From sequence record NC_027994.1: a stretch of 41,632 bases of DNA; one strand, written 5' to 3'. The stretch is from Escherichia phage K1H. This document shows positions 4,464-39,245 of the stretch, one piece after another. Position 1 is the stretch's first letter. The number at the start of each line of letters is the position of its first letter. The translations under genes and the position numbers were made by a program. The notes beneath the pieces were generated by a model, which was given only the letters and a program-made list of their open reading frames with translations, did not search any database and had not been told where the DNA came from.

Positions 4464-4489
4464 AACCACCTCCACTATACGTTTACTTA

Positions 4490-4518
4490 ATAGTACCCTA
4501 TTATGTTGGTGTCTGCAA
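4490..4518 (-). promoter_or_regulatory. Sigma70-like promoter, class 1 (TTGCAG-N17-TACTAT) with embedded dyad TAATAG-N4-CTATTA
   Basis: -35 at about 4513-4518 and -10 at about 4490-4495 (minus strand); spacer nearly identical to three other class-1 promoters. Confidence 0.5.
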
Positions 4519-13000: not shown

Positions 13001-13028
13001 AATTGTTCCCTCAGTAAGTTACAGGTGA

Positions 13029-13057
13029 ATAGTACCCTATTATATTGGGGTGTGCAA
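13029..13057 (-). promoter_or_regulatory. Sigma70-like promoter, class 1 (TTGCAC-N17-TACTAT) with dyad GAATAG-TACC-CTATTA
   Basis: -35 at 13052-13057, -10 at 13029-13034 on minus strand; 34-bp segment nearly identical to 35234-35268. Confidence 0.55.
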
Positions 13058-29571: not shown

Positions 29572-29600
29572 ACTATAATAGCTAACTATTCAGGTGTCAA
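29572..29600 (-). promoter_or_regulatory. Sigma70-like promoter, class 2 (TTGACA-N17-TATAGT) with dyad TAATAG-CTAA-CTATTC
   Basis: Minus-strand -35 at 29595-29600, -10 at 29572-29577. Confidence 0.55.
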
Positions 29601-29604
29601 CACT

Positions 29605-30870
29605 TTATTCCGAATCTTCTTCACTAACCTGATTCCACTCAGGACGTTTGTCGTCTGCCGTTGCGACACATGGTGCGCCTGGCTTACGGGTAATAAACGG
29701 CTCAAGCGCTGCCATCTCATCCGCCGAAAGAACTTTTGCTGCCTCCGTAGGGGTCATCAATACCTCTTTTTTGAGAATGTCGCCGTGTGACACTTCAATC
29801 GCATCGGCATCTTTCCACGCACGATTACCCTGGCGGCCTTCTACCAGTTTGTACCCTGGCACTTTCTTACCGGAATGCAATGCGGCGGACATCGCTTTCT
29901 CAACCTTGTCGATGTGCTGGCGCAACAGCGGCAACTTCTCATACTCAACTACGAGTTGCTCCGTCGTCAGTTCCAGCACAAAGTCGTCTTCAAGTTCTTC
30001 CGCCAGTACAGAATTAACCGTCTTTGTACGCGCGGCACACTGTTCAGAGAACCGGCACCACTGGCAACCATCTACTGACGGCTTAAAGTCTGACGCTTTC
30101 AGGTTCTTCTTACCGCGGAAATATGCATCAAGTGCTAACAGTGCTCGTTTTTGTGCGAACTTAGCGAACAGTTCCAGGCCTTCAACCGAGATATCCCACT
30201 CCGACGCACCCCCAGCGTACGGCTGGAAGATGACCAGACGAACAGTTGTTATGTTATAACGTCTCTTGAGTCGGCGATAGACACCGAGCGCGTAAAGCAT
30301 AAGCTGCTTGTTTTCTTTCGCTTCGACGCGATGCCGTCCTGTTTTCAGGTCACCAATAATGAGCATGTGCTCGTCGGTGTTTGCCAGTTCCTGTACGGCA
30401 ACAAGGTCAGCAGTTCCGAACGTTTCAACGCCTTCGTAGCCTGGGTGCAACACCTCAGTAAGATTGACGCGCATTTCCAGCTTAGCGTAAGTCGCTACAT
30501 CAATAATCGCTTTGCAGTAGTCGGTGTACTTGCGCACCTGCTCAATCATGTCCGTCGTAATCAGTACCGCGCCTTTCATTGGGCTGATTAGCGCCTTAAT
30601 CTGGCCTTTACCCTCATCCAGCACATAAGCGCCAACTTCACGCTCTAATGGCAGAGCAGTGCCTTTGATGTACTGGTTAAGGTGCATCTCCGCTATGGTG
30701 TGGCATGCAGTCCCTGTAACGGCGGCTTTACCAGACGTGTTGGGAATATCTTTCTCACAGGCCAGTGACGCACTGCACGCCAGCCACTTTTTAGCGCCAG
30801 ACGGCGACAGTAAGGCGTGCACATCGTTATTGCCGCCGCGTTCCTTTAAAATCATACCCTGCTCTCCCAC
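29605..30870 (-). CDS. PD-(D/E)XK family nuclease (DUF2800-like, Cas4/RecB-type with C-terminal Cys cluster)
   Basis: 421 aa; N-terminal LSPSGAKKWLAC..., C-terminal CQWCRFSEQC cluster. Confidence 0.6.
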   Translation of the reverse strand: MGEQGMILKERGGNNDVHALLSPSGAKKWLACSASLACEKDIPNTSGKAAVTGTACHTIAEMHLNQYIKGTALPLEREVGAYVLDEGKGQIKALISPMKGAVLITTDMIEQVRKYTDYCKAIIDVATYAKLEMRVNLTEVLHPGYEGVETFGTADLVAVQELANTDEHMLIIGDLKTGRHRVEAKENKQLMLYALGVYRRLKRRYNITTVRLVIFQPYAGGASEWDISVEGLELFAKFAQKRALLALDAYFRGKKNLKASDFKPSVDGCQWCRFSEQCAARTKTVNSVLAEELEDDFVLELTTEQLVVEYEKLPLLRQHIDKVEKAMSAALHSGKKVPGYKLVEGRQGNRAWKDADAIEVSHGDILKKEVLMTPTEAAKVLSADEMAALEPFITRKPGAPCVATADDKRPEWNQVSEEDSE

Positions 30871-31747: not shown

Positions 31748-31751
31748 TGGG

Positions 31752-31782
31752 CTTTTCTAAAATAATTAATATGGTACTATTC
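31752..31782 (+). promoter_or_regulatory. Weak plus-strand promoter (-10 TACTAT, poor -35) with dyad TAATAT-GGTA-CTATTC
   Basis: TACTAT at 31775-31780; overlaps the divergent class-2 promoter; AAGGAG SD before ATG 31812. Confidence 0.4.
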
Positions 31783-34905: not shown

Positions 34906-35236
34906 CAATGTATCGAAGGACCTTAATTCAGAATTACTTAGAAACATCATTCTTAAGTCTCGGGTACTTAAAGCCCCGCCCTAAAGCGGGGCGCTAAACA
35001 GTACTCTTGGTAACGTTAGTATCTAAGTTTCCTCAAAGTAACAGCAAGTAGCAAGAAAGCCTCCGTCTATTTAAATTTTACCCTCCTTCATAAGCTACTG
35101 ATAATTAAAAGTTTCTATAGTTGCCGTAAGCGAGGTAGAGAGTACTTCACTCCGCTGGGGTGGGCTAACGCCCACCCACTGCGTTGCGTACTCCTTTAAG
35201 AAACGAAAGAATCACAACGGCAACGTAACTATTCTC

Positions 35237-35267
35237 TTGCACACCCCAACATAATAGGATACTATTC
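35237..35267 (+). promoter_or_regulatory. Sigma70-like promoter, class 1 (TTGCAC-N17-TACTAT) with dyad TAATAG-GATA-CTATTC
   Basis: -35 35237-35242, -10 35260-35265; about 30 nt upstream of first early-right gene. Confidence 0.55.
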
Positions 35268-35299
35268 ACTTATCGGAACGAGACAGAGGAGTGAGGGTT

Positions 35300-35497
35300 A
35301 TGTTTAAGAATGGTCAGTTGGTTAAATGCGCCGACGGTGAACACGGCATAATTGAATTAAAATCTGCTTTATTTCCAGGAAAGTACGTAGTTACCGTGCA
35401 AAATGTGAGAGGAGTAAATTCACAAATATACGTAGCGGAGGAGAACTTAAAACTCATCGGCAACAATTTTAAATTTAAAGGGGGGAGGGTGAAGTGA
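35300..35497 (+). CDS. Hypothetical early protein
   Basis: 65 aa from ATG 35300 (GAGGAG SD); track start GTG 35291. Confidence 0.5.
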   Translation: MFKNGQLVKCADGEHGIIELKSALFPGKYVVTVQNVRGVNSQIYVAEENLKLIGNNFKFKGGRVK

Positions 35498-35706
35498 TGG
35501 AAGAATTATTTGAAGAACTGAAACATCATGATTTCGAGGAAATATATTTCGTAGCTGAACGCTACGAGGTGCATTTATCGGACGTGATTACAATTATAAC
35601 GATGGATAGCCAGCAAATGCTAAATAGCTTACGAGCAATACGAGCAATACGAACGGCATCGAATCATGATGCTTGTGCCGACGACGCTGAGGGAGGTTGC
35701 CGTTAA
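35494..35706 (+). CDS. Hypothetical early protein
   Basis: 70 aa, ATGA overlap with upstream gene. Confidence 0.5.
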   Translation: MMEELFEELKHHDFEEIYFVAERYEVHLSDVITIITMDSQQMLNSLRAIRAIRTASNHDACADDAEGGCR

Positions 35707-35909
35707 TGCGAATCCGTATAACTGACCGCAGGCTTATCCGTATAACTGACCGCAGGCTTATCCGTATAACTGACCGCAGGCTTATAGATTTCGGTATCTC
35801 GGTAGGTGATGTTTTTCCGGCGTTCAGCATCAACCATTATGGTTTTATGATTGAGTACAAAGGGTCGTTATTGTTCGTGTATCGGGATGAATGTGAGGTT
35901 CTGGTATGA
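35706..35909 (+). CDS. Small protein with triplicated RLIRITDR peptide repeat
   Basis: 67 aa from ATG 35706 (TAATG overlap, GGAGG SD 10 nt upstream); N-terminus encoded by three perfect 24-bp tandem repeats. Confidence 0.45.
   Translation: MRIRITDRRLIRITDRRLIRITDRRLIDFGISVGDVFPAFSINHYGFMIEYKGSLLFVYRDECEVLV
35712..35785. repeat. Tandem direct repeat, 3 perfect copies of 24 bp (ATCCGTATAACTGACCGCAGGCTT)
   Basis: Read directly from sequence: copies at 35712-35735, 35736-35759, 35760-35783, followed by a 2-bp partial copy. Confidence 0.9.
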
Positions 35910-36061
35910 GAGAAGCATTTGAACGGTGGGCTGTGGTCGAGGGTCTGCCGGTTAACAAGGGTTCAAAGAAAGAGTACCTGAACGTTAAGACGCGTCTCGC
36001 GTGGCGGGCGTGGAAAGCTGGTGTGCAATCCTTGATTGAAAGAGGTGTGAGGTATGGGTGA
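35906..36061 (+). CDS. Hypothetical small protein (51 aa)
   Basis: ATGA overlap with upstream and downstream genes; below ORF-track size cutoff. Confidence 0.35.
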   Translation: MREAFERWAVVEGLPVNKGSKKEYLNVKTRLAWRAWKAGVQSLIERGVRYG

Positions 36062-36254
36062 GTGGATTAAGTGTAGTGAGATGCTGCCGGGTAATGGGTA
36101 TACGGATAAAGAGTTCCTGGTGTATGAAACGTTAAATAACGCAGTTCAGCACGATTATTACATAGTTCCTGATGACGGGAGAAAGCCTTTCTGGAATCAC
36201 TACGATAAGTACGTGACGCACTGGATGCCGTTACCCGAGCCGCCAGAAGTGTGA
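36054..36254 (+). CDS. Hypothetical protein
   Basis: 66 aa, translationally coupled. Confidence 0.5.
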   Translation: MGEWIKCSEMLPGNGYTDKEFLVYETLNNAVQHDYYIVPDDGRKPFWNHYDKYVTHWMPLPEPPEV

Positions 36255-36388
36255 TGTTCAATAGTTTGGGATTTTACTGAGTGACTTACGCTGCTACACA
36301 GCAGCGTACAACTTTAACTTAGTGTCGTCAAAAGGCGACACTTTCATCAAACGCAACAATCGAAGCGACTATTGCAGGAGATGCAACA

Positions 36389-36562
36389 ATGATTACTAAA
36401 GAACAGGCTGAACGACTAATCACGTTAATCGACACGATGGTTGATGCGAAAACCGATTTAGCAACGGCAACAGAGGAATCCGCTACCTGGTCGCTTGAAG
36501 AAAGAGAAGCAGAAGCGGAAAGGGAGTTACTGGCGTTCATCGACTCTATAACACACCAATAA
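36389..36562 (+). CDS. Hypothetical small protein (57 aa)
   Basis: AGGAG SD 8 nt upstream of ATG; acidic helical protein; antisense track ORF 36328..36540 judged spurious. Confidence 0.4.
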   Translation: MITKEQAERLITLIDTMVDAKTDLATATEESATWSLEEREAEAERELLAFIDSITHQ

Positions 36563-36569
36563 AATTTAC

Positions 36570-36600
36570 TTGCACACTAAGATAGAATAGGCTACTATTC
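36570..36600 (+). promoter_or_regulatory. Sigma70-like promoter, class 1 (TTGCAC-N17-TACTAT) with dyad GAATAG-GCTA-CTATTC
   Basis: -35 36570-36575, -10 36593-36598; perfect 6-bp half-sites. Confidence 0.55.
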
Positions 36601-36628
36601 ATTTACACAAGCGAGAGGGGAGACAGAG

Positions 36629-36766
36629 ATGGGCTGGTACGGTAGCTGGACTTTAGGCGAACTGGTAGACGCTTACGAAATAATTAGTAGCGCTTCGGTG
36701 TGTGACGGCGACACTAAATCGCTGCTAGTCGGGGTGGATGAGAAAAGGGGTGAAGCTGATGAGTAA
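36629..36766 (+). CDS. Hypothetical small protein (45 aa)
   Basis: GAGAGGGGA SD; overlaps start of next gene. Confidence 0.35.
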   Translation: MGWYGSWTLGELVDAYEIISSASVCDGDTKSLLVGVDEKRGEADE

Positions 36767-37307
36767 CAAAAACGAAATATTCGAGTACCTGATCGACCAG
36801 CTACGGCAGCAGGTAAATAACAGCCGGAGCGAAGACCTGGCTCATGAGGTGCAGTCACTTAAGAATCAGTTACGTGATGCTTCGGTGCAGATTAAGGAGT
36901 TACATATGGCGCTGGCTACCGCCACCGGGGATGTAGAGGCTTACAAACTTGTGCGTAAGGGTGGGTACATTTCTAGGGGCCAGGGCTACGTGGTTGGCGA
37001 ACATGCGCCCGGGCCAACGGTAAATTGTCGGTGCACCCAGACGCCTGTACCGCCGGAGCAATCTGGTTGCCGTAAAGAAGATACCCAGGAATGCGAGCAC
37101 TCTTGGATTATTATGCCTGGGTTGTTTCTCAGCGAAGGCAATCCGAACAACGTTCCTGGTAGCGAGCTTTGCTCTAAATGTGGTAAACGTGAGTGGGACG
37201 ACAAGGAATATAAACCGAAAAACGATACTCAGGAATGTGATCATGATTGGGTTCTTGATGCCGACGAGGATTATTTTGTGTGCCGCAGATGTGGAGAGAC
37301 GACATGA
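36759..37307 (+). CDS. Cys-rich (zinc-ribbon-like) protein with N-terminal coiled coil
   Basis: 182 aa from ATG 36759; paired Cys motifs CRC, CSKCG, CRRCG plus ECEH/ECDH. Confidence 0.5.
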   Translation: MSNKNEIFEYLIDQLRQQVNNSRSEDLAHEVQSLKNQLRDASVQIKELHMALATATGDVEAYKLVRKGGYISRGQGYVVGEHAPGPTVNCRCTQTPVPPEQSGCRKEDTQECEHSWIIMPGLFLSEGNPNNVPGSELCSKCGKREWDDKEYKPKNDTQECDHDWVLDADEDYFVCRRCGETT

Positions 37308-37507
37308 CCAGCATCTTATTTATCTGGGTGCTAACTGCTGGCCAGATGCAACTAGCGGCATCAGAAACGTTTTATTCGATGGAGGCGTGCCAGTCAGCGG
37401 CACGCGCCGCAGAGAACGCGCACTTCCTGTTTCAGGGCGACAAGCCCAACGATTCGGAGGTACGCGCTATCTGCTCACCTAAGCGACTTGGTAAACAGGA
37501 GAAATAA
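37304..37507 (+). CDS. Small protein with N-terminal signal/TM segment
   Basis: 67 aa from ATG 37304 (ATGA overlap); MTSILFIWVLTAGQMQLAAS hydrophobic N-terminus. Confidence 0.45.
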   Translation: MTSILFIWVLTAGQMQLAASETFYSMEACQSAARAAENAHFLFQGDKPNDSEVRAICSPKRLGKQEK

Positions 37508-37800
37508 TGTCGTTAGCAACTGACATCCTGAAACGAAGCGGCCTTGCGCCGCTGTCGCCGAGAGCGAATACGCGTATACACAAGCGCCGCCGTAATGCAC
37601 TGTACCCCGAGATTCAGGCCAGACGCAAAGCGGTACGCGCCTGTGGATTCCAGAACGGGAAGGCTGTGAATCTCGGTGAGTTTAAAACACAGGAACGCGC
37701 AGCAATCGCTAATCGGCTATTTAATTACTGGAAATCGTTGGGATACGATGATATTCCGACGAAACCGCAGAGACGCCAATACATCTGGAGACATAAATAA
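37507..37800 (+). CDS. Hypothetical basic protein
   Basis: 97 aa, Arg/Lys-rich. Confidence 0.5.
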   Translation: MSLATDILKRSGLAPLSPRANTRIHKRRRNALYPEIQARRKAVRACGFQNGKAVNLGEFKTQERAAIANRLFNYWKSLGYDDIPTKPQRRQYIWRHK

Positions 37801-37831
37801 ACAACTATTAGGATAATTCCTACCCGTGGTA

Positions 37832-37869
37832 TCCTCCAGTTACTGCATACTTAATACGCACCTGGAGGA
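37832..37869 (+). promoter_or_regulatory. RNA hairpin sequestering holin Shine-Dalgarno
   Basis: TCCTCCAG (37832-37839) pairs with CTGGAGGA (37862-37869); the GGAGGA SD of the TTG-initiated holin lies in the 3' arm. Confidence 0.45.
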
Positions 37870-37875
37870 TTCATC

Positions 37876-38184
37876 TTGGATAAATTTACTGAAACAGTGA
37901 CGGGGTGGCTTCTCGCTGCCGCACTGGTCGGTGGATTGGTCGGGCTAAGACAACATAAAAAGTCTATATCCGGGCCGATTGACGGACTGGTATTTCTTCT
38001 CACCGGCTTCGCGTGTGCTATTTTCGGTGCACCTCTTGCCGCTCAATGGTTCGGTATTACCGGTGAGCGTGAGATAGCTGGCCTCGGATTCATCATTGCC
38101 ATTCTCTGGATGCCTATCTATTCCCGCCTTTCTGGCATCGTATCGGGTGGCGATATTGCCCGCCCAGGAGGACCGCATGACTGA
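37876..38184 (+). CDS. Holin (putative, multi-TM)
   Basis: 102 aa, TTG start, 2-3 predicted TM helices, immediately upstream of endolysin. Confidence 0.6.
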   Translation: MDKFTETVTGWLLAAALVGGLVGLRQHKKSISGPIDGLVFLLTGFACAIFGAPLAAQWFGITGEREIAGLGFIIAILWMPIYSRLSGIVSGGDIARPGGPHD

Positions 38185-38449
38185 GCTATTCTGGTTTGTC
38201 ACAATGCTTTCAATGGGCGCTTCGTCCCTGTTCAACGTGTATAATGAACGCGTGGACGACGGGCTGTTCGGGCGTGTTCTCTATATCCTGACTGCTATCG
38301 TCTGTGCCGCCGGATGTATTCACCTGTTACAGGGCAGCATGTCGCCTACGCTGCCTGAGACATTAATCACATTAGTCGCGCTGCGCCAGATTCGCCAGGC
38401 GTGGCTGTCATACGGAGGGCATAAGCGTGTCTCGAAATATTTCAGATAA
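38177..38449 (+). CDS. Second small membrane protein of lysis cassette (holin/antiholin-like)
   Basis: 90 aa from ATG 38177 overlapping holin stop; two hydrophobic segments. Confidence 0.45.
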   Translation: MTELFWFVTMLSMGASSLFNVYNERVDDGLFGRVLYILTAIVCAAGCIHLLQGSMSPTLPETLITLVALRQIRQAWLSYGGHKRVSKYFR

Positions 38450-38915
38450 TGGATTGCATTTCTGTGCCGCGTTCGAGGGATTCCGCGGAACTGCGTATCG
38501 CGCTACGCCGAACGAGAAGTACCTGACTATTGGTTATGGTCACTACGGGCCAGACGTAACACCAGGTAAGACCATCACACCAGGACAGGGCTTGCTGTTA
38601 CTGAATCGCGATATGGCTAAGGCTGTAGCTGCTGTTGACGCAGCAGCACACCACTCCCTGACACAGGCGCAGTTTGATGCAGTGTGCGACCTGGTCTATA
38701 ACGCAGGTGCTGGCGTGATTGCGTCTACTACGGGCGCAGGCAAGGCACTGCGTTCTGGTGATACTGCAACACTGCGGGCTAAGCTGGCGCTGTTCATCAA
38801 CCAGAACGGCAAACCACTACTTGGCCTGCGTCGCCGTACAGCCGGGCGTCTGGCGCTGTTCGACGGTAAACCGTGGCAAGAGGCTGAGGCTATTGGGCGC
38901 GAGGTGGAAGGTTGA
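38427..38915 (+). CDS. Endolysin, GH24 lysozyme-like
   Basis: 162 aa; FEGFRGTAY...TIGYGH motif typical of phage lysozymes; GTG start with GGAGGG SD. Confidence 0.8.
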   Translation: MSRNISDNGLHFCAAFEGFRGTAYRATPNEKYLTIGYGHYGPDVTPGKTITPGQGLLLLNRDMAKAVAAVDAAAHHSLTQAQFDAVCDLVYNAGAGVIASTTGAGKALRSGDTATLRAKLALFINQNGKPLLGLRRRTAGRLALFDGKPWQEAEAIGREVEG

Positions 38916-38979
38916 CACCTAAGACCAATCAGACGATACTTAAATCACCTCCTGTCCCATCCCTCTGCTCTCCAGTTTT

Positions 38980-39012
38980 ATCCCGGCCCTGACCCAGCCG
39001 GGATTTTTTTTA
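38980..39012 (+). terminator. Strong intrinsic terminator after endolysin
   Basis: ATCCCGGC-N9-GCCGGGAT followed by 9 T. Confidence 0.75.
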
Positions 39013-39033
39013 TCTATTTTCTGCAATGACTAG

Positions 39034-39062
39034 TTGACTATTACTCTTACACCAATTATATT
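39034..39062 (+). promoter_or_regulatory. Sigma70-like promoter (TTGACT-N17-TATATT)
   Basis: Right after terminator, about 35 nt upstream of small gene at 39096. Confidence 0.5.
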
Positions 39063-39095
39063 TACTCCATCGACAACGAGAACGGAGTAGCGAAG

Positions 39096-39245
39096 ATGAA
39101 AATAACAGATACCGAAGCATTCGAAGACGCGCAACTGTTGGCACGCGTCGCCGTTAGTAACATGGGTGGAAGCATTCCAGCGGACGCGTTCTGGTTCGCT
39201 GCGATGCAGACACTTAAAGCAGCTTATGCAGGAGAGAAGAAATGA
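39096..39245 (+). CDS. Hypothetical small protein (49 aa)
   Basis: GGAG SD; ATGA overlap with next ORF. Confidence 0.35.
   Translation: MKITDTEAFEDAQLLARVAVSNMGGSIPADAFWFAAMQTLKAAYAGEKK

Follow-up and report, generated by a model that had tools for sequence, protein, structure and literature searches.

A conserved hairpin covering the holin Shine-Dalgarno sequence of Escherichia phage K1H overlaps a predicted promoter

We have analyzed here the leader of the lysis cassette in the genome of Escherichia phage K1H (NC_027994.1), working from the whole 41,632-nucleotide (nt) sequence, which is referred to below as the window. The Shine-Dalgarno (SD) sequence of the first lysis gene, which encodes a holin-like membrane protein, lies in the 3' arm of a hairpin that is under selection and that recurs, with differing sequence, in related phages; the DNA encoding the 5' arm of this hairpin overlaps a predicted promoter. 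On the interpretation that we place first, and to which we give about an even chance, the hairpin serves mainly as an insulator that would tie expression of the lysis genes to the cassette's own promoter, as in gene e of phage T4.

The phage is, to judge from its sequence, a virulent Kagunavirus resembling Escherichia phage K1ind3, to which the 1.6 kb around the hairpin is 98.6% identical (259 phage records match this region). Kagunavirus and related genera belong to the Guernseyvirinae and are virulent siphoviruses with genomes of about 42 kb and without an RNA polymerase of their own. The hairpin is located within the 75-nt spacer on the 5' side of a cassette of three genes, encoding two holin-like proteins and an endolysin.

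A hairpin under selection masks the ribosome-binding site of the first lysis gene

The two arms of the hairpin, ATCCTCCAG (37831-37839, + strand) and CTGGAGGAT (37862-37870), form a perfect 9-nt inverted repeat in which six of the nine pairs are G-C, and they are separated by a 22-nt loop (37840-37861). The 5' arm carries the anti-SD sequence TCCTCC. The SD sequence GGAGGA (37864-37869) lies entirely inside the 3' arm and is followed by a 6-nt spacer, TTCATC, and then by the TTG start codon at 37876-37878. An earlier note on this DNA had described the stem as 8 base pairs (bp) long, with the SD sequence wholly in its 3' arm; the stem is real and the placement of the SD sequence within it is correct, but the length was understated, as all nine pairs are perfect.

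The folding-energy calculation that the earlier note had proposed gives -14.2 kcal/mol for the core hairpin, or -16.7 kcal/mol when a weak GUGG/UCAU extension is included; the value for the SD:anti-SD duplex is -9.3 kcal/mol. The 100-nt context folds with -26.8 kcal/mol (z = -3.4), and none of 200 shuffled sequences folds as well. The probability that the SD sequence is unpaired is only 0.001-0.004 in transcripts that include the 5' arm (starting at 37650, 37750, 37824 or 37826), and the cost of opening the initiation region is 12.3-13.6 kcal/mol in arm-containing transcripts as compared with 6.7 kcal/mol for a start at 37841-37843. At 13.0 kcal/mol, the holin initiation region is the tied third-highest of 63 candidate genes (mean 7.2, standard deviation 3.2). 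We are confident that the hairpin lowers initiation on those RNAs that contain it.

The TTG start codon is secure. It is the first possible start after an in-frame stop, it is annotated as the start in both K1ind3 and phage Shashou, and the Dhillonvirus orthologue (MDK...) has its ATG at the aligned position. It is also invariant among the 35 distinct Kagunavirus-type leaders that we compared, and the identification of TTG as the holin start in the earlier note thus holds. The next in-frame start is a GTG at codon 8, which has no SD sequence.

The stem is by itself not improbable in 41.6 kb of DNA. The window contains four perfect inverted repeats of at least 9 bp with loops of 3-30 nt, and dinucleotide shuffles contain 3.8 +/- 1.7, so that the stem alone proves little; it is the position, conservation and recurrence of the hairpin that put it beyond chance. 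A functionless inverted repeat of the kind that shuffled sequence also provides is barely credible at a site where conservation is far above that of synonymous positions, where sequence variants extend the helix, and where independent hairpins occupy the same place in six lineages.

The evidence for selection comes from the 35 leaders. Identity among them is 96-98% at positions -50 to -1 and 98.5% over the first 25 coding bases, as compared with 64% at the third codon positions of the holin gene in the same 35 variants (86 of 102 variable). This conservation starts a few bases after the stop codon of the upstream gene, which is mosaic, and 119 GenBank phage records carry the leader at an identity of at least 88.8%. 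The 3' arm shows no substitution in any leader, and the 5' arm is invariant save for 37838 A->G in Salmonella phage PK1, which produces a G-U pair. No variant weakens the helix: apart from this G-U pair there are three variants that extend it to 11-14 bp, with 37840 T->G (L010) lengthening it to 11 bp and the changes at 37857, 37859 and 37861 (L009/PK1) lengthening it to 14 bp. The loop is nearly invariant as well, even though a loop needs no fixed sequence, and this makes sense if the loop is the 5' untranslated region (UTR) of an mRNA made from a promoter in the hairpin DNA. Two other predicted structures fared differently and were rejected. The small hairpin TAGGA/TCCTA (37809-37822) in the 100-nt fold is broken without compensation by 37811 G->A, which removes a G-C pair in 13 of the 35 leaders, and pairs of the coding-region hairpin UUACUG/CAGUGA (37886-37900) are broken by variants at 37890 and 37896.

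The arrangement extends beyond Kagunavirus. The first lysis gene belongs to the same protein family, phrog_2359, in Jerseyvirus, Cornellvirus, Serratia phage Tsm2, Dhillonvirus and KW1E-like siphoviruses, and in each of these lineages a hairpin of differing sequence stands directly before the start codon, with a purine-rich, SD-like 3' arm 5-11 nt from that codon. The Jerseyvirus arms (AATCTCCGAAGGT / ACTTTCGGAGATT) are followed by a T-rich stretch (T5-T6) and a GTG start codon; the start codon is ATG in the remaining cases. The hairpins of Cornellvirus (CTCCGTAGTG / CATTACGGAG) and Tsm2 (GCCTCGG / CTGAGGC) have no U-tract, that of Dhillonvirus (AGTCCCAGTGAG / CTTACTGGGACT) is followed by T6 (T6-T8 across the genus) and that of KW1E (TCCCCGGA / TTCGGGGA) by T8 (T7-T8 in the KW1E group), to which P0038 (ATCCCCAAA / TTTGGGGAT) and P0033 (GCCCCGGTAA / TTATCGGGGT), both with T-rich stretches after the stem, also belong. 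The loops of these hairpins measure 6-8 nt. Compensatory differences are seen between neighboring lineages, with a G-C pair in KW1E replaced by A-U in P0038 and a T-A pair in Gluttony replaced by C-G in P0028. The z-scores of the leader folds range from -1.5 to -5.9, as against values of -0.5 and -0.6 for two negative controls, the distant Ounavirinae-like Wc4-1 and P0037, relatives that lack the arrangement and have the conventional order of terminator, promoter and SD sequence. Since a MAFFT alignment of the leaders lost the register of the 3' arms, the lineages were folded separately, and a structure-anchored alignment was avoided because it would be circular. From these folds it appears that structure, not sequence, is conserved across the lineages.

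As judged by the U-tract that comes after the stem, the hairpins of Jerseyvirus, Dhillonvirus and the KW1E-like phages are intrinsic terminators. The annotators of phage Shelanagig likewise marked the hairpin as a terminator with a ribosome-binding site inside it. The hairpin of the window departs from this pattern in its 22-nt loop and in its tail, TTCATCTT, which has five T in eight positions, and terminator scans made no call on it.

A predicted promoter in the 5' arm

The DNA of the hairpin contains a putative sigma-70 promoter of the extended -10 type. Its predicted element, TGgTATCCT (37827-37835, + strand), shares its last five bases with the first five of the 5' arm, and with the usual 6-nt discriminator transcription is predicted to start at A37842, within the loop. 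Kagunavirus leaders all share the TG, TA and final T of this element; at 37829, between TG and TA, 18 of the 35 have G and the other 17 have C. A TGn extended -10 element would be expected to show just this combination of fixed TG and TA with a free base between them.

Every lineage has a -10 element that reaches as far as the start of the 5' arm or overlaps it. In the KW1E group a near-consensus TTGACC-N17-TACTAT (or N18-TAACAT) runs exactly up to the 5' arm; the corresponding elements are TATACT in Tsm2, TGaTATAGT in Dhillonvirus, TGt/cTAATCT in Jerseyvirus and TGa/cTAAt/cCT in Cornellvirus. A sigma-70 position matrix built from textbook frequencies was run over the 100 nt preceding the first lysis gene in 14 lineage representatives. 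The arm-overlapping promoter is the best match in 12 of the 14 and the second-best in the window and in one Jerseyvirus, and its predicted start falls, relative to the final base of the 5' arm, between -5 and +3 nt in the set; the same scan of Wc4-1 and P0037 found nothing comparable. With its start predicted directly beyond the anti-SD arm, the promoter's transcript would be without the mask. The mRNA of the cassette thus probably starts in the loop and escapes masking.

Masked transcripts would have a source as well. A strong sigma-70 promoter, TTGCAC-N17-TACTAT, is located at 36570-36598 (+ strand) and is a likely origin of read-through; a second copy facing the holin gene lies at 35237-35265 (+ strand). 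Both belong to a phage promoter family, TTGCA(C/G)-N17-TACTAT, with a conserved spacer (...AACATAATAGGnTACTATTCA), further members of which are found at about 31750-31781 on the + strand and at 4489-4503, 13028-13042 and 29576-29590 on the - strand. The core motif of the family, AATAGTnnnnTATTA, occurs 14 times as compared with 0.5 expected. The paper on phage fBC-Eco01 ascribed this motif, found with PHIRE, to a phage-encoded RNA polymerase, and these phages have none. From 35200 to 39100 the + strand has a single canonical terminator, at 38980-39012 (ATCCCGGC-N9-GCCGGGAT followed by T8), which ends the lysis transcription unit. Since no canonical terminator intervenes, transcripts from the promoters at 35237 and 36570 should enter the cassette, and read-through into the lysis genes is plausible.

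Taken together, these features suggest the following mechanism. The cassette lies among clusters of small genes that strong host-type promoters drive, and no terminator precedes it. A transcript arriving from upstream would fold the 9-bp hairpin, TCCTCC would hold GGAGGA, and the cassette would be poorly translated; in those relatives with a U-tract, the hairpin would also terminate incoming transcripts. The weak extended -10 promoter overlapping the DNA for the 5' arm would start transcription in the loop near 37842, giving an mRNA without the anti-SD arm on which the SD sequence would be much more accessible, with the weakness of the promoter and the TTG codon still limiting output. Such a compact element would explain how a lysis cassette can lie within strongly transcribed small genes without killing the host early, and would extend the principle of T4 gene e to siphoviruses driven by host promoters and to holins. 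It would also offer a handle for engineering lysis time through the arm, the TG motif or the TTG codon. Phages of the genera Kagunavirus, Jerseyvirus and Dhillonvirus have been isolated by the hundreds as therapy candidates.

A more elaborate version of this mechanism is improbable, and we offer it as speculation. The element of about 50 nt might combine a terminator or mask acting on incoming RNA with an extended -10 promoter that is active after the early, -35-dependent promoters have been shut off. The extended -10 promoter could outlast a shut-off of the TTGCAC-N17-TACTAT promoters because it needs no -35 contact, and in T4 the AsiA protein shuts off -35-dependent promoters in this way. 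We know of no late sigma factor or antiterminator in Kagunavirus, Jerseyvirus or Dhillonvirus phages. Were this version true, it would constitute a built-in early-to-late lysis switch, previously undescribed, in small siphoviruses dependent on sigma-70; the papers we searched contain no description of the element.

Several observations weigh against the insulator mechanism. TATCCT is a weak hexamer with four of six matches to the -10 consensus. Two of its bases, the A and the final T, are also paired with the SD arm, which offers another reason for their conservation; the core helix leaves out only the TG and the first T, of which the TG can take part in the weak GUGG/UCAU extension. In the window, the embedded promoter (score 6.6) is outscored by a lineage-specific TGGAGA-N17-TAGGAT (7.8), and a consensus scan found a further promoter-like site, GAGACA-N18-GATAAT (37788-37817, + strand, 9 of 12 matches). 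Use of either the TAGGAT or the GATAAT site would yield an mRNA that includes the whole hairpin and is fully masked. Even in the short transcript the SD sequence is predicted to be partly paired with the coding region (unpaired probability 0.16). The sole RNA-seq study of a Kagunavirus reports coarse temporal classes and places the lysozyme gene in a large 'middle' class (phage vB_Eco_K1B4, PMC12645636); that transcriptome paper contains no 5'-end mapping, and the Dhillonvirus literature makes no mention of transcription starts. Finally, an SD sequence hidden in a hairpin may generally arise in this phage as a by-product of a compact genome. A second case is found in the structural operon, where AGCCCC-GAAA-GGGGCT (2768-2783, + strand) followed by TTCTTATAGT stands directly before the ATG at 2793 of an SPP1 gp7-like head gene, the only SD-like purines of which (GGGG) are in the 3' arm. 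Opening its initiation region costs 13.0 kcal/mol, as much as at the holin site, and no promoter is evident.

The hairpin before gene 2793, terminator-like and with an SD sequence in its 3' arm, would also fit the idea that the holin hairpin is the intrinsic terminator of the upstream gene cluster, either a relic or a weak one (an attenuator). The U-tract would have decayed in Kagunavirus to the present tail, and the overlap with the SD sequence would be a side effect of compaction into the 75-nt spacer, with translation control not the selected function. The orthologous hairpins in Jerseyvirus, Dhillonvirus and KW1E-like phages, followed by T5-T8, and the Shelanagig annotation agree with this origin. 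We nevertheless think it distinctly unlikely, given the terminator features missing from the window. Tsm2, Cornellvirus and Kagunavirus retain the SD-covering helix without a U-tract, the 3' arm holds SD-like purines at ribosome-site distance in every lineage, and the anti-SD core is invariant.

The competing upstream promoter sites bear on a different possibility, that the hairpin is a constant throttle. All holin mRNA would then carry the hairpin, being made from the upstream promoters or from the GATAAT/TAGGAT sites (37788-37817) with no unmasked transcript, and the hairpin together with the TTG codon would set a low, fixed rate of holin synthesis and thereby the time of lysis. Transcripts starting at 37826 or earlier do indeed all have their SD sequence fully masked, TTG is invariant, promoter-like sites exist on the 5' side of the hairpin, and the S gene of phage lambda provides a precedent in which the rate of holin translation sets the lysis time and a stem-loop controls access to the SD sequence. 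If so, the window would present one more holin gene with a weak initiation region. We consider a constant throttle possible, though on the doubtful side. It leaves unexplained both the -10 element at the 5' arm in every lineage, including the near-consensus KW1E promoters whose transcripts exclude the arm, and the conserved TG-n-TA with its free base. A helix of -14 kcal/mol set against an SD interaction of -9 kcal/mol would, from de Smit and van Duin's relation, be expected nearly to abolish initiation and not to tune it. The upstream promoter-like sites are, moreover, not conserved among the leaders: the GAGACA -35 element lies in the mosaic upstream gene and is missing from leaders with an HslV-like upstream gene, and the GATAAT -10 element has lost its final T in one variant (37817 T->A). 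The proposal in the earlier note that holin translation is throttled or regulated is accordingly sustained as regards the masking of the SD sequence and the selection acting on it; a constant brake that sets lysis time is not supported as stated, because the relatives show U-tracts and a -10 element at the 5' arm.

The lysis cassette and neighboring conserved elements

The first lysis gene (37876-38184, + strand) encodes a 102-residue holin-like membrane protein matching phrog_2359 'holin' (E = 2.4e-32), and the second (38177-38449, + strand) a 90-residue holin-like membrane protein matching phrog_2508 'holin' (E = 3.9e-35). The Shashou record gives three predicted transmembrane domains for the first and two for the second. 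A Pfam search found no family above cut-off for the 102-residue protein and no Pfam holin family for the pair. The endolysin gene (38427-38915, + strand) starts with GTG, and its product matches PF00959 Phage_lysozyme (E = 4.3e-27). The cassette genes are annotated with identical ends in K1ind3 and Shashou; the spanins of these phages are encoded elsewhere in their genomes.

The pair of phrog_2359 and phrog_2508 precedes the endolysin in every lineage examined. The suggestion that the second membrane protein, whose gene overlaps the 3' end of the holin gene, is a partner of the first is thus well founded, and the partnership is obligate. We regard the two as a candidate holin/antiholin pair, calling both holin-like and leaving the roles undivided; our literature search found no experimental paper on the phrog_2359/phrog_2508 pair.

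The three lysis genes have overlapping ends and strong SD sequences throughout, and two of the three have non-ATG starts. The ATG of gene 2 overlaps the stop codon of gene 1, with 8 nt shared (ATGACTGA), and is served by AGGAGGA at 38166-38172; the endolysin gene overlaps gene 2 by 23 nt and has its SD sequence, GGAGGG, at 38414-38419. These overlaps would fit translational coupling, in which case a block at gene 1 may gate the whole cassette. The cost of opening the initiation region is 12.4 kcal/mol for gene 2 and 10.5 kcal/mol for the endolysin gene, and all three lysis genes rank within the top nine of the 63. Dedicated masking of the gene 2 and endolysin sites was considered and rejected, their local folds being no better than those of shuffled sequences (z = -0.03 and -1.08).

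The gene on the 5' side of the cassette is mosaic among Kagunaviruses (37507-37803 in the window; loci L005, L006 and L037). In the window it encodes a 97-residue protein (phrog_9632); some genomes have an ORF38-like gene at this place and others a gene for an HslV-like protease. The switch point of the mosaic marks the left edge of the conserved leader and lies a few bases at most from 37801-37805. The stop codon of whichever gene precedes the cassette is closely followed by a conserved box, GGATAA(A/T)TCC, which reads GGATAATTCC in the window (37811-37820, + strand) and is found in Kagunavirus, Jerseyvirus, Cornellvirus and Tsm2 (L111 at about 645-654; L112 and L113). A role as a -35 element does not fit, as its distance to the TGn element varies from 6 to about 31 nt; the box could be a regulator site or a module-boundary sequence.

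Directly after the endolysin gene lies a candidate small-RNA gene (38912-39012, + strand) that contains no open reading frame. Its promoter-like sequence, TTGACA-N17-GATACT (38912-38940), has a predicted start at A38947, and the RNA would consist of a 33-nt unstructured, CU-rich 5' part (ACCUCCUGUCCCAUCCCUCUGCUCUCC...) with anti-SD-like motifs followed by the terminator hairpin described above. The module is kept in Kagunavirus even where extra genes have been inserted between it and the endolysin gene, and it recurs in Jerseyvirus (Shelanagig, PK1) and Tsm2, with a shorter form in SP-031; changes in the terminator stem are compensatory. Full-length matches below threshold in Rfam are RF02278 'toxic small RNA' (25.9 bits, E = 0.0018) and RF02837 anti-hemB. 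The best predicted targets are the ribosome sites of genes at 36629, 13936, 29605-30855 (- strand), 36738 and 39995, with duplexes of -26 to -29 kcal/mol as compared with a mean of -14.5 kcal/mol, and the lysis genes are not among the best.

These two conserved elements, together with a loop and first 25 coding bases far more conserved than a simple hairpin requires, could be taken to indicate a regulated switch, in which a trans-acting factor (a phage protein, a small RNA or a helicase) or temperature opens the hairpin late. We consider such a switch very improbable. The candidate small RNA is pyrimidine-rich and would compete for the SD sequence and not free it, and it is not supported as acting on the holin site, with which its predicted duplex is average (-14.0 kcal/mol against the mean for the 63 sites). 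An Rfam search of 37500-38300 found no match, even at E <= 1. The helix, perfect and GC-rich, is unlike those of RNA thermometers, and the conservation of the loop would be accounted for just as well by its being the 5' UTR of the cassette's own transcript.

The same design also precedes a gene that is not part of a lysis cassette. In the Dhillonvirus Escherichia phage Gluttony (L034, 2375-2424), a terminator in front of a DNA repair exonuclease gene is followed by CCGTGGTATATTG-CCTCCAG-gtcatctcaaa-CTGGAAG-taaattaat-ATG. This leader shares with that of the Kagunavirus holin gene the 9-mer CCGTGGTAT, which contains the TGg extended -10 motif, and the arms CTCCAG/CTGGA(G/A)G. Since the design is found before the exonuclease gene, a module of promoter plus mask is perhaps not restricted to lysis and may extend to other genes.

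Comparison with known systems

The predicted promoter resembles the galP1-type extended -10 (TGn) sigma-70 promoters in having TG one base upstream of a TA...T hexamer and no usable -35 element. TATCCT is weaker than the hexamers of typical examples, and here promoter activity is a prediction.

Type I toxin mRNAs (hok, tisB, timP and others) have their SD sequence sequestered in the full-length RNA and are translatable in a 5'-shortened form. The holin leader is similar in that the product is a small toxic membrane protein and in that a long RNA would be inert through SD pairing and a form without the 5' segment active. The short form of the toxin mRNAs arises by RNA processing, and an antisense RNA acts as antidote, whereas the short form here would be made by starting transcription at a second site, and there is no evident antisense partner.

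The S gene of phage lambda has an upstream stem-loop that controls access to the SD sequence for Met1, and its dual start gives both holin and antiholin. Shared with the leader described here are the location of a holin SD sequence in an upstream stem-loop and the rate of holin translation as the timing variable. The lambda stem-loop, however, divides ribosomes between Met1 and Met3, whereas the present gene has a single TTG and no Met-Lys-Met: its N-terminus, M-D-K-F-T-E-T-V, offers no two starts one or two codons apart, and no second start was found in the orthologues, which begin MDK, MHK or MDD. The possible antiholin is encoded by a separate gene. The lambda late transcript always contains the structure, which the cassette's own transcript here probably lacks. 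The element is therefore not a dual-start system of the lambda type.

The closest parallel is with gene e of T4. Early read-through RNA of the T4 genes e, soc, 49 and I-TevI has its ribosome site masked, and the DNA of the hairpin contains a late promoter (McPheeters et al. 1986; review PMC3014915). The present element appears to work like T4 gene e, as an analogy between a characterized system and one known from sequence alone, and we do not claim membership of the class. The promoter here would be a host sigma-70 promoter (extended -10, or -35/-10 in the KW1E group), whereas the T4 late promoter needs gp55/gp33; the masked gene is a holin-like gene at the head of a three-gene cassette, whereas T4 protects the endolysin alone; and in several of the relatives the hairpin would double as an intrinsic terminator, unlike that of gene e. 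The likeness extends to the enclosure of the SD sequence in a helix on long transcripts (here unpaired with a probability of at most 0.004, in a helix of -14.2 kcal/mol), to a promoter, here predicted, in the DNA coding for the 5' strand, with transcripts of its own that would be free of the mask, and to the nature of the protected gene, a lysis gene whose early expression would be harmful. In both systems, related phages keep the arrangement despite having diverged in sequence.

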